Origin: Thermodesulfobacteriota bacterium
Lineage (GTDB): Bacteria; Desulfobacterota; Desulfarculia; JACQYL01
Direction of reading: 5' to 3'
Assembly (NCBI GenBank): GCA_963675595.2
Contig: CAXXLZ010000002.1
Coordinates: forward strand, 3,904,001 to 3,968,000
DNA: 64,000 bases
In this document: one piece after another, positions 36,392 through 58,781 of the stretch
Layout: each line of letters opens with the position of its first letter
Position numbering within the stretch: position 1 is the first letter of the stretch
The notes under the pieces: model-generated
Told to the model about the DNA's origin: nothing
What the model saw: only the letters and a program-made list of their open reading frames with translations
Database searches by the model: none
Program-made: the position numbers and the translations under genes

Positions 36392-36428
36392 CACGTAGGC
36401 GTTCCCGCGATCGGCGGACTGATTCCAC

Positions 36429-36456
36429 TTGACGTGCGGAGGCGGTTCTTCATAAT
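36429..36456 (+). promoter_or_regulatory. sigma70-type promoter upstream of the ketosynthase operon
   Basis: TTGACG-16 nt-CATAAT. Confidence 0.55.
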
Positions 36457-36627
36457 GGAGTTATGGGGCTATGGAAGGGTTTGCGTTTGAACGATCGGAC
36501 GGAAAAGTGAATCGGCTCCCGCGCCACGCCCTCGTCACCCCCCAGTAAAGCATCCGAAACGATATCCGATAAAGAGGATCGATTCTGTGGACGACCTTGA
36601 GCGGGCGAGGCGTCCGGGAGGAGAAGA

Positions 36628-37872: not shown

Positions 37873-37876
37873 CGGA

Positions 37877-39346
37877 GTGACGGCGGGCCAAGCGGTGATC
37901 ATCGGCGCCGGACTGGGTGGATTGTCCTGCGGCGTGTTGCTGGCGGAAGCCGGTTGGCGGGTGACTCTCCTGGAGCAGTTCCGCAAGCCCGGGGGATACA
38001 TGGCCCGGTTCCGTCGAGGTGGCGCGGTCTTCGACACCGGATTTCATTTTGTGGGAAGTCTGGGGCCGGGCGAGGCTTCACGGCCCTACTTCGAGGACTT
38101 GGGAATTCTGGAACGCGTGAAGCTCATCCGCTTCCCTTCCGACCGGTTCTTCAGGTACTTGATTCCCGGGTCCTCGCCCCTGGAACTTCCCAACGGATTG
38201 GACGCGGCTTTCGACGTGCTGAATACCCGCTTTCCCGGCAATACCGCAGGCTTGGATTCCTTCAAATCGCAAGTTCGGGAAACCATGGCCACCTTTCCCT
38301 GGTTCAATTTGGAGCCCGTTCCTTCGGAACAGGTTCATCGGCACATGCGTACTCCCCTCAAGACGATGGTCGATCAAGCCACCGAAGATGCCGGACTAAG
38401 ACGGGTCCTCATGCTCATGTCCTGGGGAACTTCCTTGCGACCCGAGGTATGTCCTTTTGCTCTGGCGGCCATCCTCAACGGTTCCATGATTGCCGGTGCG
38501 TGGCGGATTTCGGGAGGAGGAGAGGCCCTGACCAAGGCTTTGGTGGATCGTTTTCTTGAACTGGGCGGAATCCTCGAATGTTCCGCCGAAGTGACCGGTT
38601 TCAAAATCAACGGGCTGAGGGCCGAGTCGGTACAAACTTCCGACGGCCGTCAATTCGAGGGAGACCTGTTCATCGCGACGCCTCATCCCAAGACGATCCT
38701 GGAAATCGCGGGACCGGAAGCTTTTCGTCCCACCTTCCGCGAAATGGTTCAAGACTTTGAAGACGCCCCCGGAAGTTTTTGTGTGTTCCTGGAGACGGAT
38801 CGATCCCCGGATTCCCTTTGTCGCACCAATAATTTTTTGTTGGGAGAATCTTGGGAAGACACGATTTACCTGTTATCTCCGTCCGCCGTTGAAGGAGCGG
38901 ATAAAGGACACACGCTGCATGCGCTCACCTGGATGGACTTCGACAAAGTGTCTGCGTGGGCCGAGTCGAAGCCGGGGAGCCGCCCCCCGGCGTATCTGGA
39001 ATTCAAAGCCCGTCGGACGGAACGGATTCTGTCCCGAGTCAAGGCCTGCTGTCCGGAAATCCGGGAGGGCATTCGGTATGTGGAGGCCTCGACACCACTG
39101 ACCAATCAGTATTATACCCGGAGCCATGGTGGGGCGGCCATGGGAGTGAGTCAAGGAGTGCATCAACAGGGCGCTCGGAGAATGAGGCCGAGGAACAAAC
39201 TCCGGAATTTGTTTTTCGCCGGTCAGTCGGTGGGCACGCCGGGAATCATAGGAACGCTGATTACTTCCTATATGCTTTGTGACCAGATCTTAGGCGAAGG
39301 TGTGTTGTGGAACAGATTGCGAAAACGGGCGGGGAAAGCCCCATGA
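37877..39346 (+). CDS. Phytoene desaturase / retinol saturase-like FAD oxidoreductase
   Basis: IIGAGLGGL, FDTGFHF, EASTPLT, NLFFAGQ...PGIIG. Confidence 0.88.
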   Translation: MTAGQAVIIGAGLGGLSCGVLLAEAGWRVTLLEQFRKPGGYMARFRRGGAVFDTGFHFVGSLGPGEASRPYFEDLGILERVKLIRFPSDRFFRYLIPGSSPLELPNGLDAAFDVLNTRFPGNTAGLDSFKSQVRETMATFPWFNLEPVPSEQVHRHMRTPLKTMVDQATEDAGLRRVLMLMSWGTSLRPEVCPFALAAILNGSMIAGAWRISGGGEALTKALVDRFLELGGILECSAEVTGFKINGLRAESVQTSDGRQFEGDLFIATPHPKTILEIAGPEAFRPTFREMVQDFEDAPGSFCVFLETDRSPDSLCRTNNFLLGESWEDTIYLLSPSAVEGADKGHTLHALTWMDFDKVSAWAESKPGSRPPAYLEFKARRTERILSRVKACCPEIREGIRYVEASTPLTNQYYTRSHGGAAMGVSQGVHQQGARRMRPRNKLRNLFFAGQSVGTPGIIGTLITSYMLCDQILGEGVLWNRLRKRAGKAP

Positions 39347-40611
39347 GAATCCACCTCGTCTATCCGGCCTGGCCCAAAATGCCCCACCAAACTCGGTTCG
39401 ATCTTCCGCCGCACGGTCCCGTGTGTTTCGCCTCGTCCGTTCCCCCGGGAACCGAGATTGTATTCACCGATGAAAACGTGCAACCGCTGGACTTCGAGAC
39501 TGAATCCGACCTGGTGTGTATTTCCATGATGCTCACGTGTCAGGCTCCTCGGGGATGGGAAATCGCCGATGAATTCCGAAGGAGAGGGCGCACGGTGATT
39601 GTGGGGGGCATTGCGGCCATGCTTCACGCCGAGGAATGCGCCATGCATGCCGACAGCGTCTTCGTGGGTGAAGCGGAAGGATTTTTTTCACAGACGATCG
39701 ATGATTTCAAGAATGGGCGGCTTCGGAGATTCTACCGACCGGAAAGTTTCCCGGACGTGACGGAACTTCCCTTCGCCGATCGAAGCATTTTGGACTATGA
39801 CTGTTACACCTACAAAGGTGTACGCATGGTGGATCTGATTCATGGGAGCCGGGGATGCCGTTTCAACTGCTATCCCTGTTGCGTTCCCATGCTCGGCGGA
39901 CGGAAGTTTCGTCCCAGACCGCCCGCGCGGGTGGCCGCGGAGATCGCTTCCGTGGATAATGATCGCTTTTTTCTGGTCGACAATTCCCTTGCACAAGACC
40001 GGGATTGGGTGCTTGCCTTGTTCAAGGCCCTCGCGCCCCTCGACATTCACTGGATATCCCATCCGTTGTTCAACACCGATCAGGTGGTGGAAGCCGCGGC
40101 CGCGGCCGGATGCTGGTATGTTTACCAGGCGGTGTACGATATGAGTGAGAAGACCCGAAACCGGATTCGCAGATTGAAGGATCACGGGATCGGTGTTGAG
40201 GGAACCGTGTTGTTGGGACTGGACGACCAGACGGAAGACGACGTTCTTCGCATGGTGGATTTTCTTCTCGAATTGGACCTGGACTTGGCCGAATTCACGG
40301 TCCTCACTCCTTTCCCACATTCGAAGGCCTATGAGGACCTGGAGCGGGAGGGACGGATCCTGCACAAAGATTGGAGTAGGTACACGGCTTCCGAGGTGGT
40401 GTTTCAGCCCAAACACATGACGCCGGGACGATTGCAGGAACTCCACGATTATGCGTGGGAGGCCTTCTATCGCGACGAGAGTCAGCAGCAGCGCATGTTT
40501 CGGCTGTTCATGAAGCTCATGAAGAAACAAGGCCGGTCGGACGCCGGACGGAGACGCGGTAGACGGTGCGCGGCCTCCAACGGAGTCGCGGGAAGCAACG
40601 GAGAAAGCTGA
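39343..40611 (+). CDS. B12-binding-domain radical SAM enzyme
   Basis: ATGA overlap; N-terminal Rossmann-like B12 domain; SRGCRFNCYPC; TPFPHS. Confidence 0.88.
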   Translation: MRIHLVYPAWPKMPHQTRFDLPPHGPVCFASSVPPGTEIVFTDENVQPLDFETESDLVCISMMLTCQAPRGWEIADEFRRRGRTVIVGGIAAMLHAEECAMHADSVFVGEAEGFFSQTIDDFKNGRLRRFYRPESFPDVTELPFADRSILDYDCYTYKGVRMVDLIHGSRGCRFNCYPCCVPMLGGRKFRPRPPARVAAEIASVDNDRFFLVDNSLAQDRDWVLALFKALAPLDIHWISHPLFNTDQVVEAAAAAGCWYVYQAVYDMSEKTRNRIRRLKDHGIGVEGTVLLGLDDQTEDDVLRMVDFLLELDLDLAEFTVLTPFPHSKAYEDLEREGRILHKDWSRYTASEVVFQPKHMTPGRLQELHDYAWEAFYRDESQQQRMFRLFMKLMKKQGRSDAGRRRGRRCAASNGVAGSNGES

Positions 40612-40734
40612 GGAACAAGGCGGAGTTTCACTGGGATGCGGTGTCCAAGGGTGAAATGCGGTCCGTCTTCGGCGGGCGGTTCGTGTTTTTCATGGACCGG
40701 TTGATGTTCCACTCAACCTATTGGGGATGAATTC

Positions 40735-42036
40735 TTGGAAGTGATTACTACGCACACGAGCACGGATTTTGATGCCCTGGCTTCGCTGGTCGCAGCTTCG
40801 ATCATCTACCCCGAAGCCGTTGTGGTGTTGCCCAGGAGCCTGAATCCCAACGTTAAAGCGTTCTTGTCCATTCACAAAGACCTTTTCGATCTGGAAACCG
40901 TTCTTGACATCGACCTGGATTGGGTCACCAAGCTGATTGTGGTGGATACCAACCGTTGGGGTCGTTTGGATAAGATGGACGCCCTGGCGTCCAAGGAAGG
41001 ACTGGTGGTTCACCTTTGGGATCATCATCCCGAAATCGGCGATATTGTGCCTCACTGGTCCTGCCAGGAACTCACCGGCGCGGCGACGACCCTCCTGGTG
41101 CAGCAGCTGGAGGAGGAAAAGAAGGAGCTGCTGTCTCCCATTTTTGCGACGCTCTTCCTGGCGGGGATCTACGAGGACACGGGAAACCTATCCTTTCCCT
41201 CCACCACGGCGGAGGACGCCCGCGCGGCCGCTTACCTGTTGGATCAGCAAGCGGACCTCAACGTGCTCAACAGCTTCCTGCGCCCAACCTACGGACCCAA
41301 ACAGAAAGACATCCTTTTCGAGATGCTCAGGAGCGGCAACCGGACGGTCATTGATGAGCAGCGTATCGGGCTTTCAATGGTGGAAGTAAATGGGCATACG
41401 CCCGGCCTTTCCCTGGTGGTCCAGATGTATCGGGACATCGTCAACGTGGACGCGGCCTTCGGAATCTTCGTTGACCCGAAAAAAGATTCCTGCATGATCA
41501 TCGCACGCAGCGCATCCGACGCCATCAACGTGGCGACCGTGCTCCGAGGTTTGGGAGGCGGGGGGCATCCCGCCGCCGCCTCGGCGTTTCTGAAATCGGC
41601 CAATCCGGAGGCGGTCCAAGACACGATCCTCGGACTCGTCAGAGGAAACCAGCAGTCCTCGATCCAGATCAGCGACCTCATGTCCTTCCCCGTGGTGACC
41701 GTCCCCCCCGATATGACGATGACGGACGTGGCCCAGCTGCTCAACGACACCGGGCATTCCGGCGTGCTCGTGGTCGAAGAGGGGCGACTTGCGGGAGTCA
41801 TTTCCAAGAGGGATTTCAACAGGATCAAAAAGAAGTCCGGATGGAGGTCCCCCGTCAAGGCTTTTATGTCCAGAGACGTGCTTACCATCGATCCGGCGGT
41901 GAGCCCCATCAAGGCGGCGCGGATCATGCTCAAGCACGACATCGGGAGGTTGCCCGTGATGGAGGACGGTCATATCATCGGAATTCTTACCCGATCGGAC
42001 CTGATGATCTTCTTTTACGACCTCTTGCCCGATTGA
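40735..42036 (+). CDS. DHH/DHHA1 phosphoesterase with a C-terminal CBS pair
   Basis: THTSTDFDA, VVDT, WDHH, EDTG, GGGGHPAAAS; two CBS domains; TTG start. Confidence 0.88.
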   Translation: MEVITTHTSTDFDALASLVAASIIYPEAVVVLPRSLNPNVKAFLSIHKDLFDLETVLDIDLDWVTKLIVVDTNRWGRLDKMDALASKEGLVVHLWDHHPEIGDIVPHWSCQELTGAATTLLVQQLEEEKKELLSPIFATLFLAGIYEDTGNLSFPSTTAEDARAAAYLLDQQADLNVLNSFLRPTYGPKQKDILFEMLRSGNRTVIDEQRIGLSMVEVNGHTPGLSLVVQMYRDIVNVDAAFGIFVDPKKDSCMIIARSASDAINVATVLRGLGGGGHPAAASAFLKSANPEAVQDTILGLVRGNQQSSIQISDLMSFPVVTVPPDMTMTDVAQLLNDTGHSGVLVVEEGRLAGVISKRDFNRIKKKSGWRSPVKAFMSRDVLTIDPAVSPIKAARIMLKHDIGRLPVMEDGHIIGILTRSDLMIFFYDLLPD

Positions 42037-42112
42037 GCCCCGTACGCGGAACCATTCAGGGGGCGCAACCGTTCGGAAAGAGGGGTCCCCATGATGTTCT
42101 TTCCAAGCGCCT

Positions 42113-43642
42113 ATGAACGAACACATGAATAAAGGAAAAATCCGATCCGGCCCCAGCAGGGTGGTGCTGATTCACCCTCGTGGTTTCGGCTATGTCAAAG
42201 GTAAGCCGGACGTCACTCATTTGGCCAACCGCATGCCTCCTTTGGGCTTGCTGAGTATCGCCGCGTACCTGCGTGCCCAGGGCGTCGCCGTCTCTGTGGT
42301 GGATTTGTGTGCGCGGCCGGAGCCCATGGAGAGTCTCCTGCGAAGGCTGGAAACCATGCGTCCGGATTACGTGGGGTTCAGCTGCACCACGGCGAGTTTC
42401 CTGGATGGAACGGTTGTCGCCGAGGCCGTCAAAGACCGTTTGCCCGGCGTAGGGATTGTATTCGGCGGTGTCCATGTGTCGGCGCTAAGAGATGGAATAC
42501 TGGATTCTTTTCCCATTGTCGACTTCGTGGTCGCCGGTGAAGGGGAACAAACCATGCTCGAGCTGGTCCGTGGAGAGGACCCGCGGCATATTCGAGGTTT
42601 GACCCACCGCGACAAAGGGACGAACGGGGAATCGGAGGAAAAGCGGCGTCCTCTGGACCCGGATGCGCTGCCCTTTCCGGCATATGATCTTCTGGAAGGT
42701 TTCCCGAAAGACTACCTGCTTCCCATCTTCAACTATCCTCGCTTCCCCGGAGCCACCCTGGTGACGAGCCGGGGCTGCCCCTACCAGTGCACCTACTGCG
42801 ACAGGTCGGTTTACGGCAGGTCTTATCGGTACAACTCGCCTGCATACGTTTACGAACACATGCGCATGCTCCGCAGGCGGTTCGGGGTTCGGCACATCAA
42901 TATTTACGACGATCAATTCACCTTTCATCGCGGCAGAGTCGGAGAGTTTTGCGAGCAGATGGCCCGGCGTCCCTTAGGAGTGACGTTCAATTGCGCCGTT
43001 CACGCCGGTCATGTGGATCCGGAACTCCTGCGTCTTTTGAAAAAGGCCGGCTGCTGGATGGTCAGTCTGGGCATCGAGTCCGGGGATGCCGAGCTGGTGG
43101 CACGCCATAAGCGGAACACGGACCTATCCAAAATTTACCAAACCGTCGGAATGATCAAAAGTGCGGGCCTGCGGGTCAAGGGACTTTTCATGATGGGATT
43201 GCCGGGGGAGACCGAAGAAAGCATCCGGCGCACCATCCGTTTCATCCTCTCTCTCGACCTCGACGATATGAATATGTCCAAGTTCACACCTTTCCCCGGT
43301 GCTCCCATCTACCGAGATATCCGGGAATACGGGAGTTTCGAGGAGGACTGGAACCTGCTCAATTGCCTGAATTTTACGTTCGTGCCTAAGGGGATTCGGT
43401 CAAAAGAACGCCTGGATGAGCTCTATAGTCTGTTCCTCAAGAGTTGGTACCAGCGGCCCGCCGTTCGCAGCAAGTATGTGCGGATGTTTTGGCAGTCGCC
43501 CCATTCCTGGTGGGTTCTCCTGAGACATCTTCCCGCATTCCTACGTGCTCGAAACGACTGGAACGCCGGGTCCGGGGAGAGAATTCGCATCCGGCCGCCA
43601 CGATCTTCGACATTCCGTAAAGATATGGTAAATCCTTTGTGA
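42113..43642 (+). CDS. B12-binding-domain radical SAM enzyme (class B methyltransferase-like)
   Basis: PPLGLLSIAAYL, FGGVH, GEGE, SRGCPYQCTYC, GIESG, GLPGET, TPFPG. Start uncertain (42113 or 42125). Confidence 0.9.
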   Translation: MNEHMNKGKIRSGPSRVVLIHPRGFGYVKGKPDVTHLANRMPPLGLLSIAAYLRAQGVAVSVVDLCARPEPMESLLRRLETMRPDYVGFSCTTASFLDGTVVAEAVKDRLPGVGIVFGGVHVSALRDGILDSFPIVDFVVAGEGEQTMLELVRGEDPRHIRGLTHRDKGTNGESEEKRRPLDPDALPFPAYDLLEGFPKDYLLPIFNYPRFPGATLVTSRGCPYQCTYCDRSVYGRSYRYNSPAYVYEHMRMLRRRFGVRHINIYDDQFTFHRGRVGEFCEQMARRPLGVTFNCAVHAGHVDPELLRLLKKAGCWMVSLGIESGDAELVARHKRNTDLSKIYQTVGMIKSAGLRVKGLFMMGLPGETEESIRRTIRFILSLDLDDMNMSKFTPFPGAPIYRDIREYGSFEEDWNLLNCLNFTFVPKGIRSKERLDELYSLFLKSWYQRPAVRSKYVRMFWQSPHSWWVLLRHLPAFLRARNDWNAGSGERIRIRPPRSSTFRKDMVNPL

Positions 43643-43784
43643 ACTCTTCTCGGTAAGCCCTCCGACCGTTTGGAATCTTTCGAACCGCTCTGTTAGAATC
43701 ACGAAGAACTCACCGGCGCCGCACGAATGCTCCAAAGTCCGTTCGACCCGAGAAACCTCTATCTCTTACCTCAAGGAAAATTTC

Positions 43785-46700
43785 ATGACGGACATCGCTC
43801 GTCCACAAACTCCCTATTATGACGCATCTACCCGCCATACAGTGCGGATTCTCTCGCCTGATTCCACCGAAAGCCGTGTGGAATTGGTGCGGATGGCCGG
43901 AGCTGCCGTGCCCGTTTATGTTCAGCCGGAAACGCCGCTTTGGTTCGTACCGAGCCCCTCTTTGGATCGGATGCTTCTGGACGGCTCGGACCGCCCGCCG
44001 CGGGGAGCGGAGACTCCGGACCGGGTTCTGGACCGATGGGACCTGGAGCGCATATTGACGTCCTGTCGTCGGGAACCCTACTCCGGACCTCGAGTGATGG
44101 AACTGAAGAAGCTGCGTGAGCTTTGGCTGCACGTGACCAATGCCTGCAACCTTCGTTGCGCGCATTGTCTTTTTTCCTGCGGCCCCGGTCCCGCCCCATC
44201 TCTTCCTCTCGCGCGCATGTCCTCCCTCGTTGAAGAAGCTTACGGGCTGGGTTGCAGGCTGGTGCTGTTTACCGGGGGAGAGCCCCTTTTGGTTGAAGGC
44301 CTGTCGGATTTGTTGGCAACGTCGCAGGCGCGTCCGGATCTCACCTTGGCGGTGCTCACCAACGGTCTTCTGATTCCCTCTTTGTTCCGGAAGATGCGAT
44401 TTCCGGATCCTGAACGGTTGCACTTCCAGGTGAGCCTGGATGGTTCTCGAGACTTTCATGAAGGTCTCAGGGGGAAAGGTTCCTATGATGGGGCGATTCG
44501 GGGCCTGAATCTGCTGATGGAACAGGGATTTCCCTGCAGTATCGCCATGACCGTGACATCGGACAACGTCGGTTCCATGGCTGAGGTGGTGCGCACGTCA
44601 CACGCAATCGGCGTTCGGGCGGTTCACTATCTGTGGTGTTTCCGTCGTGGCAAAGCGGAGGGCCTTGATTTTCCATCCATGGAGTCCTTGATTCGGAACT
44701 TGAGCTTGGCCGAGTCCGAAGCCCGGCGGCTCGGAGTGGTGATCGACAACATCGAGGCGATGCGCAGCCAGGTTTTCTCTCCGCCCGGCACCAGGTTCGA
44801 TTTGGGCAATGCCGGCTGGGAATCCCTTGCCGTCGGGCCGGACGGCTTTGTCTATCCCACCCCCGCCCTTGTGGGGAGAGAAGCCTTGCGAGCCGGATCG
44901 ATCGATGTCGGTCTCGAACGGATATGGAGACACAGCGAATTATTCGAACGAATCCGTCGCTTCTCTCTGTTCGATATTCCTGAAATGGCGGAGGACCCCT
45001 GGCGGTTGATCACCGGTGGAGGGGACTTGGACCACTGCCTTTCACTTGCCGCACAACCGGCCGGTTCCGAATTCAACCCGGGCCCCGATCCCTATGCCCC
45101 CCTGTATCGGGCCATGGCCCGGATGGTGATCGAAGAAGAAACGGCAGGTCTTCCCGCGCCCCCGTCGTCGGGATTGATACTTAAAATGGGCGATGTCATG
45201 CCGGAATGCCCGCCGGAGCGGGAATTGAATTTCACCCACTGCAACTGCCTGCTTTCCGTCGGAGGAAGCACCACTCACCTGGTTCGAGAATTCTATTCCG
45301 AACGCGCGGCAACCACGGACGCCTCCATCCGGAATCCGGTGCACTATTCCGATGAGGAGGCCGGATTTATTCCGGAAGAAGCTCGTTTGCGGGCCTACGG
45401 ATGCGGCAGCCCCGTGGGGGAGGCCGCCCTCGTGGAGGGCGAGACGGTGGTTGATTTGGGGTCCGGCGCAGGCGCCGAATGCTTTGTAGCCGCACGTGCC
45501 GTGGGACCCAGGGGAAGAGTGATCGGTGTGGACATGACAGCGGAGATGCTGGCCCTTGCGCGACAGACGTCGGTGAAGGTAGCCGAACGTCTGGGCTATT
45601 CGAACGTGGAATTCGTCGAGGGCTTCCTTGAGGATATTCCACTCGAATCGCGAAGTGCCGACGTGGTCGTCTCCAACTGCGTGGTCAACCTGAGCCGGAA
45701 CAAACGACGAGTGTTTCAAGAAATCTTTCGGATATTGAAGCCGGGGGGGAGAATCGTCATCTCCGATGTGGCCACCGAAACGGAGCCACCCTTGGAGGTC
45801 CGGTCGGATCACCGACTCATCGGTGAATGCATCGGCGGGGCTCAGGTTCAGGACTACCTGTTCGGCATGCTGCGGGATACGGGATTCCAAGGAGCAAGGG
45901 CGCTGAAGCGGTTCCCGTATCGTTCCGTGGGAGGCCACGATTTTCATTCTCTGACCTTTGCCGCGTCCAAACCGCCGGCGGCGTCTTCGGCGCCGATGGA
46001 CGTGGTTTACGCCGGTCCGTTTCGGGCCGTTGTCCTGGACGACGGCACCGTGCTGAACCGGGGAGTCCGCCGGACGCTGCGGGCGGCGTGGCAGGGTTCC
46101 CCGGAGGACGCGGCTCGGGCCGGGATATTCTTTCTTGATCAGGATACGGGAGCGATCACCAATGTGGACGCGGTGTGCGACTGCAACTGCGGTTTGCCTC
46201 CGGAACCGGCCGTGGAGGAGGAGACGTCGGACAGGCCCGCCACAGGCTGCCTCGAATGCGGCGCCCCGCTGGTCTATCAATCCGTGCCGGAAGATCGGGT
46301 ATGCATCCGTTGCGGCAGGGTCGCTCCCTCCGACGCGATCTGCGAGAACGGTCATTTCATCTGTGATTTCTGTCACGCCAAGGATCCCTCCGAAGTCATC
46401 GAGCGGGTGTGTCTGCTCAGCATGGAAACCGACATGCTCCGGCTGTTTGAAGAGGTCAGATCACATCGATGTTTTCCCATGCACGGACCGGAACACCATG
46501 GGCTTGTCCCGGGGGTGATTTTGTCGGCGTTTCGTAACTCGGGAGGCGATCTCACCCGGGAAGCGATCGTCGCGGGCATTCGACGCGGCGCCATGGTTCC
46601 GGGAGGCGCCTGCGCTTTCATGGGGACCTGCGGAGCCGCCACAGGTGTCGGGGTTGCGTTTTCCATGATTCTGGAGGCCACTCCCCTGACTCCGTCGAAG

Positions 46701-46976
46701 CGGCGGGATATCCAATCCCTGGTGGCGGACGTCATCAAAGCGATTGCCGAGCGCAAAGCGGCACGCTGCTGTCGGCGCGAAAGCTATATCGCCTTGAGGA
46801 TTGCGGCGGCTCGATCCAAGGAACTGCTGTCCGTCACACTCAAGGCGGAAGACGACTTCTCGTGTTCTCAGTACGCCGCCAACAGGGAATGTATCGGATC
46901 CGCCTGTCCGGTGTTTCCCAAAAGAGAAGATGTCTCGTTGAGTCCGATCAAAATCGTGAGGGCGGCGAAAGGCTGA
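43785..46976 (+). CDS. Radical SAM + ArsM-like SAM methyltransferase + Zn-ribbon + DUF5714-like Cys-rich fusion protein
   Basis: CNLRCAHC, TGGEP; YGCGSP, DLGSGAG, SNCVVNL, ECIGGA; CLECG/CIRCG/CENGHFICDFCH; HGPEHH, GACAFMGTCGA, RCCRR. Confidence 0.85.
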   Translation: MTDIARPQTPYYDASTRHTVRILSPDSTESRVELVRMAGAAVPVYVQPETPLWFVPSPSLDRMLLDGSDRPPRGAETPDRVLDRWDLERILTSCRREPYSGPRVMELKKLRELWLHVTNACNLRCAHCLFSCGPGPAPSLPLARMSSLVEEAYGLGCRLVLFTGGEPLLVEGLSDLLATSQARPDLTLAVLTNGLLIPSLFRKMRFPDPERLHFQVSLDGSRDFHEGLRGKGSYDGAIRGLNLLMEQGFPCSIAMTVTSDNVGSMAEVVRTSHAIGVRAVHYLWCFRRGKAEGLDFPSMESLIRNLSLAESEARRLGVVIDNIEAMRSQVFSPPGTRFDLGNAGWESLAVGPDGFVYPTPALVGREALRAGSIDVGLERIWRHSELFERIRRFSLFDIPEMAEDPWRLITGGGDLDHCLSLAAQPAGSEFNPGPDPYAPLYRAMARMVIEEETAGLPAPPSSGLILKMGDVMPECPPERELNFTHCNCLLSVGGSTTHLVREFYSERAATTDASIRNPVHYSDEEAGFIPEEARLRAYGCGSPVGEAALVEGETVVDLGSGAGAECFVAARAVGPRGRVIGVDMTAEMLALARQTSVKVAERLGYSNVEFVEGFLEDIPLESRSADVVVSNCVVNLSRNKRRVFQEIFRILKPGGRIVISDVATETEPPLEVRSDHRLIGECIGGAQVQDYLFGMLRDTGFQGARALKRFPYRSVGGHDFHSLTFAASKPPAASSAPMDVVYAGPFRAVVLDDGTVLNRGVRRTLRAAWQGSPEDAARAGIFFLDQDTGAITNVDAVCDCNCGLPPEPAVEEETSDRPATGCLECGAPLVYQSVPEDRVCIRCGRVAPSDAICENGHFICDFCHAKDPSEVIERVCLLSMETDMLRLFEEVRSHRCFPMHGPEHHGLVPGVILSAFRNSGGDLTREAIVAGIRRGAMVPGGACAFMGTCGAATGVGVAFSMILEATPLTPSKRRDIQSLVADVIKAIAERKAARCCRRESYIALRIAAARSKELLSVTLKAEDDFSCSQYAANRECIGSACPVFPKREDVSLSPIKIVRAAKG

Positions 46977-47121
46977 CGAATAACCGGCTCACGGCGTTCG
47001 GAACGATCCCGCCCACGGCACGGCGGCCAGCGGCTCGATGTTGGACGTCCGAGAAGACCGTATCACAAGGGGTGACCGTGCCTCTGCAAATCGGCGCCGG
47101 CGCATGAACGACTTTGTTCAA

Positions 47122-47149
47122 ATAAGTCGGCTTCCATAAGCCGACCTAT
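47122..47149. terminator. Inverted repeat downstream of the fusion gene
   Basis: ATAAGTCGGCTT-CCAT-AAGCCGACCTAT; no clear U-tract. Confidence 0.35.
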
Positions 47150-47190
47150 CCGACCTCCGACTGAACAAGGAAGGGGAGAAGGGGCGGGCC

Positions 47191-47205
47191 GACCTTGACA
47201 AGGTC
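47191..47205 (+). promoter_or_regulatory. Palindromic operator overlapping a TTGACA -35 box upstream of mop
   Basis: GACCTTG-A-CAAGGTC perfect palindrome containing TTGACA. Confidence 0.45.
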
Positions 47206-47298
47206 CGGTTCGTGATTAGCGAACCTTAGAAGCATCAATAACAAAAGGTCTACAAGACCGTATCCTCAACTTTCGACCGCAGTTTCGGGAGGTGTGAA

Positions 47299-47508
47299 TT
47301 GAACCTGAGCGCCAGGAATGTATTCAAAGGAAAAGTCGTCGATGTAAAAGAAGGCACGATCATGGCGAAGGTGAAAGTGGACATCGGCAGCGGCAACATC
47401 ATCACTTCCCTCATCAGTTCGGAGGCTGTCAACCAACTCGGAGTCAAGGTGGGGGAAGAAGTTTCCGTGCTGGTCAAGGCCACAAGCGTCATGGTTGCAA
47501 AGGGCTAG
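47299..47508 (+). CDS. mop: Mop/TOBE molybdate-tungstate-binding protein (molbindin)
   Basis: LSARNVFKGKV...ITSLIS...VKATSVM; TTG start with GGAGGT RBS. Confidence 0.9.
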   Translation: MNLSARNVFKGKVVDVKEGTIMAKVKVDIGSGNIITSLISSEAVNQLGVKVGEEVSVLVKATSVMVAKG

Positions 47509-48125
47509 GTCGTCGCCTATCCGAGCCTGCGCCGGCAACGACCGACCGACGCGCATAATCGGTTTGTGCCGATGGGCGTTCATGAGCGCAGGCCTTTCAA
47601 ATCGAAATGAGGCAAGGATTGCCTCAGGCAATGAAAAGGCCGTATCCAAGTCGATCATTCTTCCGTAATGCCCCGGGCCCAATGTGCCGGAAGATCGTTG
47701 ATCTTTTCGGAAGGCATGTCGACTCGTTCATACGAACCTCCCGGGGAGACTCCCTCTTGCCGGTTATCCCAAACTTTCCGGTCTCCCAAACGCCTACCAC
47801 CTATCCTCCGGTCGATGCATGCCGGAGCCCATCGTTCCCTACCCGATTTTTGCTGAATGTCCTTGTCTGAAGACCTCCGGCTGTTTCGCGTGAGTGTCCG
47901 GATGTCGCTTGATTCAAGGATTGAAAGGCAGTAAGCGTATTCTTATTTCAAACACGACTCAGACCTGTCTTCGCGTTTCTCACGTCGATTCGGCATGCGG
48001 ATACGGCGTCTCGATCCGTCCCGATGCGATTGCGCTATGAATTGATCGACAACCCCCTCCGGGCCCCACGGCCGCCGTGTCCGGGAAGTCGTCTGAAACG
48101 CGGCGTCGGTTGGGAGGTTGTATCG

Positions 48126-48890
48126 ATGAGGTTAATCGAGAATCTTTATCGTCATTTTCATGAAAAGGCTCGGCATACCAGAGTATCACATGTTTCCGTA
48201 GGCCTAAGATATACGGCCGTATTGACCGACGACGGCGGTATGGGACTCGCCTATACCAATTTGAGCTCTTCCGGCTGCTGTGCGACCAAAGGAGCTTACC
48301 GAGACTACGAAGAACGGCCCGCCGTCGAGTTGTTGGAGCAAATCAAGGATTCCTCACCTTTGCATCGCAGTATGGGGCTGGCACTCGTCAATGCCATGAA
48401 CTACCGGCAGGCCTGTGAACTCCGGGAGGACTCGGGCGACGGCTATTGGATGGATGCGTTCGGTGTCGGGAAAGAAACGCGGGTTGCCATGGTGGGGTTT
48501 TTTCGTCCCCTCATGAAGTTGTTCAAGGAGCGCGGCGCTCTGGTGGAAGTATTGGACGATCAGCAGGGAGTCGGCGATCGGGTTTCCTTCTATGGGAAGC
48601 TGGACGGGTGGGCGGATGTGTTGTTGCTTACCTCGACTTCCATTTTGAACGCGAGCACCGAGGAAGTGCTCGGTCGTCTCGGTCCGGAGGTAAAGGTCGT
48701 CATGCTGGGGCCGAGCACTCCTTTGATCCCCGAAGCTTTCTCTCATCTTCCCGTTCACGTGCTGGCGGGAACCGTTCCCATCGACAAGAACGGCGTGTTG
48801 AAAGCAGTCCGGCATGGAGAAGGAACGCCCGTGATCCATCGATTCAGTCGGAAGGCTTATACCGTTTTGCCGGGGCGAGAGTTTCATTGA
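48126..48890 (+). CDS. DUF364/DUF4213 Rossmann-like (putative metal/pterin-binding) protein
   Basis: GLRYTAV, GLALVNA, VAMVGFF, TSTSILN, LGPSTP, LAGT; GGAGG RBS. Confidence 0.8.
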   Translation: MRLIENLYRHFHEKARHTRVSHVSVGLRYTAVLTDDGGMGLAYTNLSSSGCCATKGAYRDYEERPAVELLEQIKDSSPLHRSMGLALVNAMNYRQACELREDSGDGYWMDAFGVGKETRVAMVGFFRPLMKLFKERGALVEVLDDQQGVGDRVSFYGKLDGWADVLLLTSTSILNASTEEVLGRLGPEVKVVMLGPSTPLIPEAFSHLPVHVLAGTVPIDKNGVLKAVRHGEGTPVIHRFSRKAYTVLPGREFH

Positions 48891-49308
48891 GCCTTCGCCA
48901 AAGTGACCGGCCCACCGTCGATGGGAATAATTTCCTTTGGATGGTTATCGGTGCCGGCTTCCCGAAGGATTCTCCTTCAGGCTCCCGGGGCCTGAGAGCG
49001 GGCGGTACGGTACGGCCGGACGGCAGATCCGTGGGGAAGGCTGCGAGAACGAGGGATGCCGTGAGTTCTCGATGCCGGGGCGACTCGAGCGGATGGGCGT
49101 TGCAGGGCGTCCGAACGGCAGGTGGGTTTATGAAGCATTTAACGGAAATGCCGTGTTGTCGCCCTCTTGGGGCCTGATTTCATGGCACCGGGCTCGGGCT
49201 GTTCCGTCGGGGAGCGACCGGTTTTTTCGTTGCGTTCTCCCATGGTCTGCCTTATCATTTTTGTAGTGGTGTTGGTTTTTTCATCCGGACTCGAAAGGAA
49301 GCCCAGAT

Positions 49309-49917
49309 ATGTTTAGAAGAGTTTCGTTTCTCATTGTTCTTGTTGTTTTTGCCCTGTCGATGGGAGTGGTGTGGACGATGCCGGCGTATGCCGACGACAT
49401 CTCCGACGCCATTGAAGAAGGCTTGGCGCTCTACAAGAAGGGCGAGTTCTCCGAGGCGGTTCAGAATCTGGATTACGCGTCTCAGTTGATTCGCCAGAAG
49501 AAGAGCGACAAGTTAAAGACCTTGCTTCCCGAGGCCCCGGAAGGATGGACTGCGGAGGAGTCGTCGTCCGAAGCCATGACCGGCGCCATGTTTGGAGGAG
49601 CTGTCGCGGCCAGGCGGACCTACATCAAGGACTCGAGCCGGATGAATATCGAGATCATCACCGATTCTCCCATGTTACAGGGCATGATGATGATGTTTAA
49701 CAATCCTATGTTCGCGACGTCCGATGGGGGAAGACTCACCAAGATCGCGGGTCGGAAGGCCATTATGAAATACTCCGATTCCGGCCGCGAAGGGGATATC
49801 CGGATAGTGGTGGCGGACCGTTTCCTGGTCAATGTCTCGGGAACCGACGTGTCCAAGGAAGAACTCACGAATTTTGCGGAGAAGATCAACTACGAGGAAA
49901 TGGCCAAGCTGCCCTAA
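49309..49917 (+). CDS. Exported hypothetical protein
   Basis: Signal peptide ending PAYA-DD; helical N-domain, then LLPEAPEGW beta domain; typical codon usage. Confidence 0.75.
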   Translation: MFRRVSFLIVLVVFALSMGVVWTMPAYADDISDAIEEGLALYKKGEFSEAVQNLDYASQLIRQKKSDKLKTLLPEAPEGWTAEESSSEAMTGAMFGGAVAARRTYIKDSSRMNIEIITDSPMLQGMMMMFNNPMFATSDGGRLTKIAGRKAIMKYSDSGREGDIRIVVADRFLVNVSGTDVSKEELTNFAEKINYEEMAKLP

Positions 49918-49962
49918 GGAGTTTGTCAGGGAAACCGGCATAGGATGGAAGAGGGCTGCGCC

Positions 49963-50271
49963 ATGGAAGAAGACAGGAACGACCGGAATTCGGAAGGCAA
50001 GAGGGTAAAAGTATACTGTGCCAATGCCCGATGTCTGACGGAAGAAGAGGTTCAGGCCCTGCCCGAGGACAAACGAAAGCAGATGGAGGAATCGGGCGGA
50101 AAAGGTCTCTGGATGGAATTCTTCTGTCCGGACGAAAGTTGTCTTAGGGAAGAAGAAAGAATCGATCTTCCCGTGAGAATGGTCGCGGATGAGAAGAAAA
50201 AGGGAATGTGGTTGAATTTGTTCTGCCCGGAAGACCGATGTGTCATCGATGACGAAACCGACCTTCCCTGA
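49963..50271 (+). CDS. Small acidic protein with three C-x4-C repeats
   Basis: VYCANARCL, FFCPDESCL, LFCPEDRCV; GAGG RBS. Confidence 0.7.
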   Translation: MEEDRNDRNSEGKRVKVYCANARCLTEEEVQALPEDKRKQMEESGGKGLWMEFFCPDESCLREEERIDLPVRMVADEKKKGMWLNLFCPEDRCVIDDETDLP

Positions 50272-50607
50272 GGCGGAAGCGCCGTGAAGGGGCCCGGGGG
50301 AGCGTGGTTCTCCCGGCGACCCCATGATCAAATACCGAACATCGGCTCCCCTCAATCGGAGTGCCGCCTATTCTCCCGCACTGGCTGGGCGGCCCCGGTC
50401 GGCACAAGAACGACTATCGTGATAATTTGTGTAACCGTATGGTAATAGAACAGCTCATCTACTGAAGGCGTCAAAACGCAATGGGTTCGGCCCATTCGCC
50501 GTTAGGCCTCATCTCGTTGGGAAGGATTGGGCTCCCCTTTTGTCGGGGGGCGGGATCCGACCGGCGTTCGAAGGCTTCCCATCCCTATTATTGGAGACAA
50601 GGGGCTC

Positions 50608-51522
50608 TTAGAGCAGTTTTCTCGCCAGGTTTTCGATCAGCTCTCGGTTCTCCAGTTTTTCCCGCCACAACAAAGGAACGGCGTCCACACCAAGGTAGGC
50701 CCCGGAGAGTGCGCACGCCATGGCCCCCAGTGTGTCGCGGTCTCCGCCGTTCAGGATCGCGCAGAAAAGGCAGTCCTCAAACGACATGGGATACCTGAGA
50801 AAGGCATAGAAAGCGAACGGCAAGGATTCATTCACCGCGACGGAACGGCCGAGGGCGTTCGCCGCCGGTTCCGCATCGGAGCTTTCGCTTACCAGCTCCG
50901 CCAAACGTTCCATTTTTTCCCGCATCTGTTGGGTTTTCGGGAATCTCACGAGGCTGTTCAGAAAACGATCGGTGGGGAAAGGGTGGTCGGGGTCGATCTT
51001 TACCGCTTCGCCCACGGCGAAAGCCAGTGTGGCCGCACCGTCCATCCCTACGGGGTGGGTGTGCGTCACCCTCGCGGAAGCACACGCCTCATCGTAGAGT
51101 AACCGAGAATCGTGGTAAAATAGCCCGACGGGCGACACACGCATGGCGGCGCCGTTTCCGAAGGAGCCTGCGCCCCCGAACAAGCGCGCCGCCGCTTCGG
51201 GGTATGGAATTCCTTGTGAAGCCACGATTTGGAAGATCATGGGCGGCCCCGGGGCGTAGCCCCTCCATGGCTCCGCATCGTAATTTCGCCGGAAAACGTC
51301 CCCCAGCCGCTGGACGTCGATCTTTCGGACTTGGCCCAGCGTTTCGGCGATCCCCAAAGCCATGGCCGTGTCGTCGGTATATCGCAGAACGGGAATCTCT
51401 TCCAGAACCGAGGTCAATTTGGCACGATCGGGACACTCAAAGGCCATCTCGCCGATGGCGTCTCCGATTCCGGATCCAAGCATGGAACCCAGGAACTTGG
51501 ATTCAAGATCGGGTCGGTGCAT
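50608..51522 (-). CDS. ADP-ribosylglycohydrolase (DraG/ARH3 family)
   Basis: GDAIG, YTDDT, GNGAAMR, THTHP, GGDRDT; ATG 51522 with AAGGAG RBS. Confidence 0.93.
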   Translation of the reverse strand: MHRPDLESKFLGSMLGSGIGDAIGEMAFECPDRAKLTSVLEEIPVLRYTDDTAMALGIAETLGQVRKIDVQRLGDVFRRNYDAEPWRGYAPGPPMIFQIVASQGIPYPEAAARLFGGAGSFGNGAAMRVSPVGLFYHDSRLLYDEACASARVTHTHPVGMDGAATLAFAVGEAVKIDPDHPFPTDRFLNSLVRFPKTQQMREKMERLAELVSESSDAEPAANALGRSVAVNESLPFAFYAFLRYPMSFEDCLFCAILNGGDRDTLGAMACALSGAYLGVDAVPLLWREKLENRELIENLARKLL

Positions 51523-51751
51523 AGGTGCTCCTTTCGTTCTGATGAACCGGAACAAGGGACCCGCTGCCGAATGCGGGGCCCGCCCGAGGCGGGCCGGTGG
51601 GATGATTCTTAGTGTTTGACGGATCATTGCAGAATTCCTTTCCGGTGTCCATGGATTCCGGAAACACGGGTGCCCGGAGCCGGCTTAATGAGTCCGGGCT
51701 CGCGAACGAGTAACGCGCTGTTTGGAATAGGCACAACGTGCCGGCGGAGGG

Positions 51752-54700
51752 ATGATCTTGCTCAAAACCTACGTGAGTAATCGTCAGGAACTACTGCTGG
51801 ACCGTTTGGTCCAAGTGCTGGAAGCTCCATCTCCGTCCGTACTTTGTCCGGAAGTGATTCTAGTGCAAAGCAAGGGAATGGAACGCTGGATCTCTCTCGA
51901 ATTGGCTGCTCGGTGGGGGATTTGCGCCAACTGCAGATTCCTGTTTCCCAACACCCTGGTCGAAGAAGTATTCGAGGCTTATTTCTCCGGATCCTCACAA
52001 GATGATGGGTTTTCCAAGGACAGGCTCGCTTGGCGGATCATGGGACTTCTTCCCACGTTGTCCAAGGAACGAGCCTTTGAGGACATACGCCGATACCTGT
52101 CCGAAGATCCTACCGGACTGAAGCTGTACCAGGTATCTGCGAAGGTTGCCGATCTGTTCGATCAATATCTGACCTTTCGCCCCGACATGCTCCTCAAGTG
52201 GGAAAGGACCCGAGATTCCAGCTGGCAAGCCGTGCTTTGGCGCAAGATCGTGGGTGATTCCACGGGCACGCACCGAGCAGCTCTCTTGGAACGCTTTCTG
52301 GAATGCGCGGCGCGTGGGGAGACTCCCGGGTCCCACCTGCCGGTGAGGATCAGTGTTTTCGGTATTTCCTACTTGCCCGGGTTCCACCTTGAGGTGCTCA
52401 ATGCGATTTCCAGGTTTTCCGATGTCCACTTCTTTCTGATGAATCCGTGCAAGGTCTACTGGGGAGATATTCGGTCGAGCCGTGAAATCGCGGGCATCGA
52501 AGCCGCGGCGGGACGGAAGGAGCAATCGGAGCCGGAGCTTCACTTCGAGGAAGGAGCCCTGCTTCTGGCCTCTCTCGGGGTTCATGGAAGGGAGTTCTTC
52601 AATCTGGTCCAGGACATGGACGTGACGGAAGAATCGCAGGATTTCGAGGATCCCGGGACCGACACTCTCTTGGCGAAAACTCAGTCCGAGATTCTCAACT
52701 TGGGGGACGGAGAAGTTCAAGAGCCTTCCAGCGTTCCGCTCTCTCCGCCGGACCATTCCATCGCGATACATTCGTGCCACAGTCCCATGAGGGAAATCGA
52801 AGTGCTTCACGACGCGCTTCTTTCCCTTTTCCAGTCCAATCCGGAACTCCGGCCCGAAGATGTGGCCGTCATGACGCCCGACATCGATATCTATGCCCCT
52901 TTCATACGGGCGGTGTTCGACGCTCCCGAAGAGGTCGACGAGAGGATTCCGTACACGGTTGCCGACCGCAGCCTAAGAAATGAGGGGCGGCTCGCGGAAC
53001 CGTTTTTGGCTCTATTGGCGCTATGGGAAGGCCGCCTTGGGGTATCGGAGGTTCAGGCCATTGCCGAGGCGCTCCCCGTCCGACAAAGATTCGGATTTTC
53101 CGAAACGGACATGGAATTGCTCGCGCGGTGGGTTTCGGAGACGGGAATACGATGGGGACTGGACGGAGAGGAGCGGGCACGCTTGGGGTTGCCGCGAACG
53201 GAGGAGAACACCTGGAGAGCGGGCTTGGACCGACTTCTGTTGGGCTTGGCCATGCCGGACGGACAGGGTTGTGAATTCGCCGGCATTATCCCCTATGACG
53301 CAATCGAAGGTGCTTCGGCGTCGATCCTGGGTGCGTTTCTTGAATTTGCCGAACGGTTGTTCCGATGGCGAGCTCAATCGGGTGAAGCAAAGACCCTCGA
53401 AGAGTGGGGGCGGCTTCTCTTGGAGGTACTGGATGCTTTTTTCGAGCCCTCGGCGGAAACCGAAAGGGAAATGCAGACCATCCGAGGAATGATCCAACGC
53501 CTTTCGTCGCAGCAGGCGGACCTGGGCGAGGGACACAAAGTGGGCCCCACCGTGGTTTCGGCTTTTTTTAAACAGCGTTTCCAGGGAGAGTATCTTGGAT
53601 CCGGTTTTCTAGGTGGAGGGGTGACTTTCTGCTCCATGCTTCCCATGCGCAGCATTCCTTTTGAGGTAATCTGCCTGTTGGGAATGGACTCGGAGGCTTT
53701 CCCCAGGAAGTCCAAAGTCATGGAATTCGATCTCATCGCCAGGCATCCCCGACCGGGTGACCGATCCCGAAGGCATGACGATCGCTATTTGTTCTTGGAA
53801 ACTCTGTTGTCGGCGCGCCGCAAGCTTCACATCAGCTATGTGGGGCAGAGAATCCAGGACAACGAAGAGATTTCACCTTCCGTGGTGGTCAGCGAGCTGC
53901 TTGATTCCCTGCAACGAACCATCGGAGAGGCGCATGAGGCGACGGTGGAAAGACTCATAGTGACCAAGCATCGTCTTCAGGCCTTCAATCCCGCCTATTT
54001 CCGAGAAGAGGGAAACCTGTTCAGCTATTCCAAGGTCAATTGCCGCGCCGCGCAAAGCCTGAACTCCATTCATGAACTCCCGCCGTTCTTTGGTGTGCCT
54101 TTGGATGAGCCCGGAGAAGAATGGAGAACCGTCGACCTGGACTTCCTGTGCGATTTCTTCTCCAATCCCTGCAAAGTGCTGCTGAAGAATCGGCTGGGGG
54201 CGGCACTCGAAGAAGAGGTTCCGAGTCCCGAAGATCGAGAGGTTTTCGCTCTGGACGCCCTTCAAGCCCACAAGGTCCGGGAGGAAATGTCGCGGGCGTT
54301 GTTGGCCGGGGAAGCGGAGCAGGACGTCTTGCGGCGCATGGTCAAGTTAGGACGACTGCCACACGGCGTTGTGGGATTGTGCGGGTTCGACAGGCTGAAG
54401 TGGGAAGTAAAGGCATTCGTGGAACGAGTTCGGGAGAGCATGACGGAAGAAAGACCTCCCATGGAAGTGGATATGACATTCAATCATTTTCGTCTGGTCG
54501 GCGGGATTCGGGGAATTCGTGGGCAGGGACTGGTTGGATTTCGTTGCGCCAAAATCAAGCCCAAAGATCGTCTGCGCATGTGGATTCGCCACTTGGTTTT
54601 GTGTGCGCTGAGCGTCGAACCGCCTTACTCGGAAAGCTTGCACATTGGGCTGGACCTGACCTGCGGATATGCTCGACCGCAAGATCCCCGCGCCGTTTTG

Positions 54701-58692: not shown

Positions 58693-58781
58693 TTGGATGG
58701 ACTCCCTGCTGATCGTGCCGTCCTTTCATTCCTTACCGGCCGTTGCGACGCCGTGACGGAGACCCTACCGACGGGAACTGT

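Follow-up and report, generated by a model that had tools for sequence, protein, structure and literature searches.

A conserved fusion of a radical SAM module, an ArsM-type methyltransferase and DUF5714 in Desulfobacterota: a candidate counterpart of ArsS

The window analysed here is a stretch of 64,000 nucleotides from a Thermodesulfobacteriota bacterium (GTDB lineage Bacteria; Desulfobacterota; Desulfarculia; JACQYL01), namely positions 3,904,001 to 3,968,000 of the forward strand of contig CAXXLZ010000002.1 in assembly GCA_963675595.2. A single open reading frame (ORF) on its plus strand, at window positions 43785-46976, encodes a protein of 1063 amino acids (product P0001), hereafter called the fusion. 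It consists of five parts: an RRE-like N-terminal domain, a radical S-adenosylmethionine (SAM) core, a SPASM fold devoid of its cluster cysteines, an ArsM-type methyltransferase, and a zinc ribbon followed by DUF5714. The gene and its parts are given below in window coordinates, with the basis of each assignment in brackets.

43785..46976 (+), whole fusion gene (ORF, translation, full-length family of >110 members, AlphaFold2 model)
43827..44099 (+), N-terminal RRE-like domain, about residues 15-105, with invariant P51 and W53 (VIA-align to CteB and TigE)
44100..44684 (+), radical SAM core, residues 106-300, with C121xxxC125xxC128 and TGGEP 163-167 (Pfam PF04055, invariance in 115-116 sequences)
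44685..45194 (+), SPASM-fold region without auxiliary-cluster cysteines, residues 301-470, with GGGDxDH 411-417 (structural match to anSME, CteB and PqqE)
45195..45260 (+), Cys/His hairpin linking the radical SAM module and the methyltransferase: C475, H485, C486 and C488 (conservation)
45261..46190 (+), ArsM-type methyltransferase, residues 493-802, with a C-terminal beta subdomain, C540, C632 and C682, and a CxC tail of C800 and C802 (PDB, VIA, NF008823, trees)
46191..46229 (+), flexible linker, residues 803-815 (model pLDDT <50)
46230..46382 (+), zinc ribbon C822/C825/C840/C843 and second Cys/His site C853/H857/C860/C863 (invariance)
46383..46919 (+), DUF5714 helical core: HGPEHH 900-905, C943, C949, R994-C995-C996, C1027, C1036 and C1041 (PF18978)

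An earlier, sequence-only reading of this locus had described one 1063-residue frame that joins an intact CxxxCxxC radical SAM core, a SPASM-like region with its usual cysteines lost, a methyltransferase with YGCG, SNCV and ECIGGA cysteines, and a C-terminal zinc ribbon followed by a domain with HGPEHH, GxCGA and RCC motifs. All of these are in place. The radical SAM motif reads CNLRCAHC (residues 121-128), and the SPASM-like stretch has DLGNAG (339-344) and FVYPTP (355-360), both free of cysteine. The methyltransferase carries YGCGSP (538-543), SNCV (630-633) and GECIGGA (680-686), the zinc ribbon CLECG (822-826) and CIRCG (840-844), and the last domain, which is DUF5714, HGPEHH (900-905), GTCGAA (947-952) and RCC (994-996). 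Pfam matches are Radical_SAM at residues 117-262, Methyltransf_31 at 551-689 (class I methyltransferase models lie at about 550-690) and DUF5714 at 872-1043.

The fusion belongs to a real and conserved family that comprises more than 110 full-length proteins and has no characterised member. A search of a large protein collection returned 406 homologues (E <= 0.001); 120 were listed, and of these 116 have the same domains and a length of 1000-1130 amino acids, which places the architecture far beyond chance. Most carriers are of Desulfobacterota type (Desulfoluna, Dissulfuribacter, Thiovibrio, Desulfobulbaceae, Desulfomonilaceae), with some Planctomycetota among them, and database names, where given, are merely 'DUF5714 domain-containing protein', 'methyltransferase domain-containing protein' or similar. 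Our literature search found nothing on DUF5714 and, as far as titles and abstracts show, nothing on the fusion architecture. Haft and Gwadz 2023 and Haft and Tolstoy 2025, which reportedly define MbdU and the ArsM selenoproteins, may bear on DUF5714.

Conservation was read from 116 full-length sequences (115 in a second alignment). C121, C125, C128, C540, C632, C682 and 18 further cysteines are kept in 96-100% of them; the radical SAM cysteines and TGGEP are invariant, as are C540, C632 and C682 of the methyltransferase (100%). In the hairpin, C475 and C488 stand at 100% and C486 at 64%, and in the CxC tail C802 stands at 100% and C800 at 98%; all but two of the C-terminal cysteines fall within 96-100%. 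Between residues 285 and 470, no position has cysteine in more than 45% of the sequences. Selenocysteine in the fusions was considered and rejected, the in-frame TGA codons that had been counted being terminal stops.

The AlphaFold2 model of the fusion, built on the 115-sequence alignment, has a mean predicted local distance difference test (pLDDT) score of 90.2 and a predicted template modelling (pTM) score of 0.77, with low confidence confined to residues 1-10, 803-815 and 1051-1063. Aligned with VIA, model residues 31-456 match residues 1-450 of the sactipeptide synthase CteB (5wgg_A; Z 30.6, 399 aligned), residues 25-460 match 3-468 of TigE (8vpo; Z 25.5, 390 aligned), and residues 109-494 match 2-392 of anSME (4k36_A; Z 29.1, 346 aligned); further matches are SkfB, SuiB, ChlB and PqqE. 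On the strength of the CteB, TigE and anSME matches, the N-terminal third is a complete maturase architecture, with a recognition-type domain, a core and a SPASM fold. The term RRE-like follows from the N-terminal domain of CteB, which we take to be an RRE domain; the corresponding domain of the fusion has no Pfam match. The Pfam SPASM model scores 19.1 bits at about residues 343-393, under its cut-off of 21.5. Among NCBIfam models, the Rv1681 family ranks first for the N-terminal part (90.9 bits, cut-off 380), followed by ScmF, StsB and mycofactocin models, all below their cut-offs. BLASTP aligns the fusion with a true ArsS protein at 29% identity over 153 residues, and no RCCLKC tail of the ArsL type follows the radical SAM module.

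This resemblance raises the alternative that the fusion is a maturase of peptides or proteins: its RRE-radical SAM-SPASM module would act on a ribosomally synthesized and post-translationally modified peptide (RiPP) or on a protein, perhaps one with DUF5714, and its methyltransferase would methylate the product. We judge this improbable. CteB is indeed the best structural match, N-terminal domain included, TigE, SkfB, SuiB, ChlB and anSME also match, and in one locus (L094) the gene immediately before the fusion on the same strand encodes a stand-alone DUF5714 protein; yet the cysteines of the SPASM clusters are gone, no conserved neighbour was found among 13 loci, and no shared small ORF that could encode a precursor peptide was found within 1.2 kb of 12 copies (blastp-short, E <= 1e-3). 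Moreover, a maturase would leave unexplained the ArsM cysteine triad, the link to TIGR04282 and TIGR04283, and the complementarity to ArsS, to which we turn below.

The best solved relatives of the methyltransferase are ArsM and AS3MT (5evj at E 3e-36; range of ArsM entries in the PDB, 3e-36 to 1e-30), with 30-36% identity in structure alignments. Model residues 519-787 align with residues 49-343 of CmArsM (4fr0; VIA Z 28.3, 264 aligned), and in this alignment C540, C632 and C682 correspond to CmArsM C72, C174 and C224, the three As(III)-binding cysteines of ArsM. NF008823 scores 231.9 bits (234.7 in the genome search), under its cut-off of 263, and NF040538 180.7 bits, also below cut-off. For comparison we assembled 61 ArsM-type ORFs from related loci: 13 short (passing NF008823), 45 long (310-375 bits on NF040538) and three intermediate. 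Aligned with long ArsM, the fusion still has its C-terminal subdomain and Cys-rich tail (C800xC802) but not its insertion of about 45 residues. Short ArsM has a Cys-rich stretch at the site of the fusion's IRNPV; C475, C486 and C488 of the fusion lie further upstream.

In an unrooted tree with these 61 ORFs, all fusion domains sampled (17) fall into a single clade (support 100) that lies between short and long ArsM. A rooted quick tree, with five generic methyltransferases of the own genome as outgroup, grouped short ArsM, fusion and long ArsM together (SH-aLRT 82, with very long outgroup branches) and made the fusion, on a long stem, sister to short ArsM (SH-aLRT 94); neither node was starred. 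The solved relatives and the cysteines put the methyltransferase in the ArsM lineage, and the rooted tree gives moderate support for a position inside the ArsM radiation.

A plain detoxifying ArsM would methylate arsenite for volatilisation, with the radical SAM module and DUF5714 as redox or regulatory accessories and no C-As bond formed. Such an enzyme would agree with the ArsM-type domain of the fusion and with a genome of origin that has no model-passing ArsM, where the best matches to NF008823 are the fusion and a selenoprotein paralogue. Against it, the cluster-binding and SAM-binding motifs of the radical SAM module are invariant in more than 110 sequences, the fusion sits in no ars operon (86 ORFs flanking 13 homologues), and it occupies the slot of ArsS in a gene cassette; we regard this explanation as very improbable. 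The paralogue, which lies outside the window (G000:C2:2113315-2113893, minus strand; locus L077, 982-2196, minus strand), is an ArsM-like gene interrupted by in-frame TGA codons; it has HHULGGA at the Cys224-equivalent and an AhpD-like CDPU domain, lacks the SNCV cysteine, and is followed by a rhodanese/DsbD-like frame with further TGA codons. Together, these genes look like an ArsM/AhpD selenoprotein system.

The cassette in question comes from a survey of 401 genomes of the phylum, the own genome included. The fusion, scored as a DUF5714-type match in an open frame of at least 900 amino acids, is present in 29 genomes, with all three domains confirmed in 12. TIGR04283, named as an 'arsenosugar' glycosyltransferase, occurs in 197 genomes at E <= 1e-45 (184 over cut-off) and ArsS (TIGR04167) in 144 (141 over cut-off). 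TIGR04283 is found in 28 of the 29 fusion genomes versus 169 of the 372 others, and ArsS in three of the 29 versus 141 of the 372. The 197 TIGR04283-positive genomes divide into 131 with ArsS only, 25 with the fusion only, three with both and 38 with neither, three of these 38 having truncated or split matches to the fusion.

Adjacency completes this picture. At seven loci picked for having the fusion and TIGR04283 on the same contig, a TIGR04283 gene above cut-off is in every case the immediate same-strand neighbour of the fusion, and TIGR04282 is also present in six; the gene orders are [04282][04283][fusion], [fusion][04282-04283] and [04283][fusion]. ArsS adjoins TIGR04283 in the same slot in at least 27 genomes, coordinates having been read from the best 150 matches per search. 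One of the three genomes with both (G083) has two cassettes on separate contigs, one with ArsS and a long ArsM, the other with the fusion and TIGR04282-04283. The proposed pairing with organoarsenical radical SAM chemistry thereby gains support from comparative genomics: the fusion co-occurs with and adjoins TIGR04282 and TIGR04283, and is complementary to ArsS. At one locus (L110, G200:C41, 1684-4967, minus strand) a TAA codon splits the fusion into ORFs of 761 and 334 amino acids, still in the order [TIGR04282][TIGR04283][fusion]; the interruption may reflect a pseudogene, an error in sequencing or a protein that is truly split.

Other combinations of the two activities exist elsewhere. In five of 74 loci (L020, L021, L029, L040 and L049, from Planctomycetota and Acidobacteriota), the partner beside a long ArsM is not ArsS but a radical SAM gene whose best model is, as for the fusion, the Rv1681 family, and which is 34% identical to the fusion over 167 residues. 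At L020 this pair is followed by a TIGR04282-TIGR04283 gene, and the cassette may have in the Rv1681-like protein a third radical SAM partner. A grouping of the fusion's radical SAM core with these ArsM-adjacent genes was rejected, the tree having put the fusion outside their clade. Long ArsM is paired with true ArsS at L024, and natural ArsM-ArsS fusions of 666-704 amino acids, methyltransferase first, occur at L063 (4111-6165), G162:C22, G168:C4, G228:C1, G137:C12 and G257:C1; they are a second, independent joining of both activities in the same phylum.

The C-terminal domain is DUF5714 by its Pfam model (PF18978: 188.8 bits, cut-off 26.2, E 7.5e-56, model positions 1-172 of 173), with a weak C_GCAxxG_C_C match inside it (Pfam, E 5e-4). 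For residues 812-1050 the top model is MbdU (NF045648), at 124.9 bits with a cut-off of 600. The zinc-ribbon region has only weak profile similarity, to RING-type fingers. Folded alone, the C-terminal 248 residues reach a pLDDT of 91.4, and the fold returned nothing at E < 1 from Foldseek against the PDB, no significant match in a PDB profile search, DUF5714 clusters only in the ESM Atlas, and, in a wide VIA search, a best Z of 5.6 (split-Soret cytochrome c, 1h21_A, and CyuA, 9fsl_A), which is in the noise range of that tool.

Stand-alone DUF5714 proteins of about 250-290 amino acids share with the fusion the zinc ribbon and the second Cys/His site, both invariant in the two groups, as well as the CC pair and C943/C949. 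In several of them, a Cys-Sec (TGA) motif occupies the N-terminal position that corresponds to the fusion's C800xC802, and the stand-alone genes neighbour an ArsR-type regulator, CopD-like membrane proteins and a CDF transporter. These neighbours and the Cys-Sec motif suggest a role of DUF5714 in metal or metalloid handling or in redox chemistry. In the stand-alone proteins at L080-L087 and L094, MLGC.HA replaces the HGPEHH of the fusion; a CopD-like membrane protein gene follows the DUF5714 gene at L081 and L082, and the gene at L094 (9971-10660, minus strand) is on the same strand as the fusion downstream of it.

The explanation towards which we lean, with modest confidence, is that the fusion replaces ArsS by a single chain of different structure that includes its own ArsM, and that it serves a pathway for compounds of arsenic, or of a closely related metalloid, with carbon that is linked to TIGR04282 and TIGR04283. 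The idea of replacement derives from the co-occurrence with TIGR04283, the adjacency, and the rarity with which fusion and ArsS coincide in a genome. In the scheme we infer, a trivalent metalloid would first be loaded on pairs of cysteines, for which C995-C996 of DUF5714, the C800xC802 tail and the C475/C486/C488 hairpin are candidates; the hairpin, with H485, may be a metalloid site, and the invariant RCC of DUF5714 is a candidate As(III) site by analogy only, since the RCCLKC of ArsL binds As(III). Second, the ArsM-type domain would hold the metalloid on C540, C632 and C682 for SAM-dependent methylation. Third, the radical SAM [4Fe-4S] cluster would cleave a second SAM and a carbon radical would be added to the metalloid, forming the C-As bond, in the simplest case by a 5'-deoxyadenosylation like that of ArsS. 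Fourth, the TIGR04282 and TIGR04283 transferases, where present, would process the product further. Substrate, order of steps, SAM bond cleaved and function of DUF5714 are all part of what this scheme supposes.

A more elaborate version turns the fusion into an assembly line, in which the metalloid is never released and is carried by a cysteine arm (C800xC802 and the linker 803-815) from DUF5714 to the methyltransferase triad and on to the radical SAM site; we hold this to be rather doubtful. Equally doubtful is its companion idea, that the RRE-like domain would grip the arm of its own chain instead of a leader peptide, making the protein a repurposed RiPP-maturase scaffold.

Several observations weigh against the ArsS-substitute explanation. 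The fusion reaches only 37.2 bits on the ArsS model TIGR04167 (cut-off 300, model positions 3-149 only), it is absent from the 18 matches of the ArsL model NF040542 in its genome, the tree of the radical SAM core places it outside the clade of ArsS and Rv1681-like proteins, and its closest structures in this module are peptide and protein maturases with an RRE domain. Of the kinship with ArsM, ArsS and ArsL, the methyltransferase part is supported, and the radical SAM part needs refining, being neither ArsS nor ArsL by the models. Even the methyltransferase scores under every ArsM model cut-off and is missing the fourth, N-terminal cysteine of ArsM (C44 in CmArsM, the CC pair in long ArsM), having IRNPV where long ArsM has LCCPV.

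The genomic evidence has its own weaknesses. Presence of the fusion was scored from a DUF5714 match and frame length, the three domains having been confirmed in 12 of the 29 genomes, and the Fisher tests over the 401 genomes gave p-values (1e-8 and 1e-11) whose significance is overstated because the genomes are kin. Fusion and TIGR04283 were seen side by side in only six of the 29 fusion genomes, plus the one split copy. The own genome has TIGR04283 (257 bits) 3.5 Mb from the fusion and no TIGR04282 at E <= 1e-10, so a complete cassette there was rejected; it has no ArsS either, the best match to the ArsS model being the fusion itself at 37 bits. Long ArsM occurs in only six of the 401 genomes, from which it follows that most ArsS cassettes here work without it, and the notion that the fusion contributes a long ArsM, encoded by a separate gene in genomes with ArsS, is not supported. 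To our knowledge, no assay stands behind the names of TIGR04282 and TIGR04283, which rest on association, and the chemistry of the cassette in anaerobes is itself putative. Around the fusion, all-against-all clustering of 13 loci found no conserved neighbour, and a glycosyltransferase family 2 (GT2) gene lies beside it in one of the 13 (L011). The predicted link to ars, mod or tup genes also failed to appear: the 86 ORFs flanking 13 homologues include no arsenic-resistance, arsenic-transport, molybdate or tungstate family (Pfam).

Some of these points would fit the same cassette working on another element, with ArsS, TIGR04282 and TIGR04283 of anaerobes, and the fusion with them, acting on selenium, antimony, tellurium or sulfur species or building a small-molecule cofactor, and with arsenic being a name carried over from cyanobacteria. 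The lack of ars genes near the fusion and the methyltransferase scores below the ArsM cut-offs both suit this alternative; with 144 of the 401 genomes having ArsS and 197 having TIGR04283, the two are very widespread for something specialised on arsenic, one in-frame TGA marks many copies of ArsS as selenoproteins, and stand-alone DUF5714 genes with the Cys-Sec motif adjoin CopD-like, CDF and ArsR-type genes. However, experiments are reported to have shown C-As bond formation by ArsS, the fusion family keeps without exception the three cysteines to which As(III) is bound in solved structures of ArsM, and the methyltransferase appears to nest among ArsM groups. We therefore consider another element unlikely, though the least so of the alternatives weighed here.

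Downstream of the fusion in the window lie two genes that the sequence-only reading had suggested as possible parts of the system (Pfam/NCBIfam):

47299-47508, Mop/TOBE (molbindin) gene, 69 amino acids
48024-48890, DUF4213+DUF364 gene

Neither was found beside any of 16 related copies of the fusion (tblastn; 13 homologues from other genera and three closer relatives), and their membership in the system is not supported. A homologue of the secreted-protein gene at window positions 49309-49917 comes directly after the fusion in two same-family genomes, which makes Mop and DUF364 look like an insertion in this genome. The pair, situated between the fusion and the 49309-49917 gene, has spacers of 320 bp and 515 bp. 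No riboswitch or other RNA was matched by Rfam at E <= 0.1 in 36000-52000, and a promoter and terminator scan near Mop gave consensus-level sites only.

The 86 ORFs at the 13 loci are housekeeping and varied genes (Pfam). Upstream in the window, a same-strand run at 37877-43642 encodes an FAD amine-oxidase-like protein, two B12-binding radical SAM proteins and a DHH-DHHA1-CBS protein, and is not conserved at other fusion copies; these genes, like Mop and DUF364, were rejected as partners, none being found beside the 13 homologues or the three closer relatives (tblastn). Further downstream are ordinary genes, namely an ADP-ribosylglycohydrolase gene (50608-51627, minus strand), recC (51752-54997), and ORFs that are probably recB and recD (54994-58692 and 58743-60674). 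Pyridine nucleotide-disulfide oxidoreductases (MerA-like or dicluster type) recur at distances of no more than a few kb from the fusion, in four of about 23 inspected loci (L108, 11211-12659; L111, 5018-6790; L008, 8386-9873; L011, 1836-4112) and may supply reductant.

ArsS has been studied in cyanobacteria. If the fusion were a third, structurally unrelated solution, the complex organoarsenicals of sediments, aquifers and rice paddies would be likely to come in part from sulfate reducers and related anaerobes. It would also provide a one-gene metagenome marker for C-As chemistry, a compact system in which to study the transfer of toxic trivalent intermediates between active sites, and a first functional context for DUF5714 and its selenoprotein relatives. 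ArsS and ArsL are the only radical SAM routes to C-As bonds described (bioRxiv 10.1101/2024.02.01.577332).

Among known systems, the SPASM/twitch maturases (CteB, anSME, SkfB, PqqE) have in common with the fusion a fold of about 400 residues that includes the N-terminal domain and SPASM (Z 25-31). They differ in their seven or eight cysteines for auxiliary [4Fe-4S] clusters, which the fusion lacks, and in an adjacent precursor peptide gene, of which none was found beside the fusion (12 copies, 1.2 kb), whereas the fusion has a methyltransferase and DUF5714 attached. MbdU (NF045648) and the stand-alone DUF5714 proteins combine zinc ribbon and DUF5714 with the same invariant cysteines and histidines, CC pair included, but MbdU has two selenocysteines and the fusion none, and the score of the fusion is far below the MbdU cut-off. 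With ArsM and AS3MT (CmArsM 4fr0/4fs8, CrArsM 5evj, human AS3MT 8xt7), the fusion shares the fold, including the C-terminal subdomain, and the equivalents of Cys72, Cys174 and Cys224; its methyltransferase, in contrast, is always fused, forms a clade of its own and is without the canonical N-terminal cysteine or cysteines.

The arsinothricin pair ArsL and ArsM operates by the binding of As(III) to a C-terminal RCCLKC of ArsL, formation of a C-As bond by its radical SAM domain and methylation by ArsM, ArsL having been studied in the soil bacterium Burkholderia gladioli (bioRxiv 10.1101/2024.02.01.577332). The RCC of ArsL lies in a tail, whereas that of the fusion belongs to the globular DUF5714 and is separated by about 500 residues from the radical SAM module; an arsQ-type gene was not seen next to the fusion. 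A further parallel is the combination of ArsS and ArsM, which likewise unites a radical SAM enzyme with an ArsM-type methyltransferase. Where ArsS (TIGR04167) has a C-terminal Cys/Sec-rich domain, the fusion has an RRE-like N-terminal domain and a Cys-less SPASM fold; the fusion also places the radical SAM module before the methyltransferase and adds a zinc ribbon and DUF5714. The two nevertheless have the same TIGR04282 and TIGR04283 partners and occupy the same operon slot.

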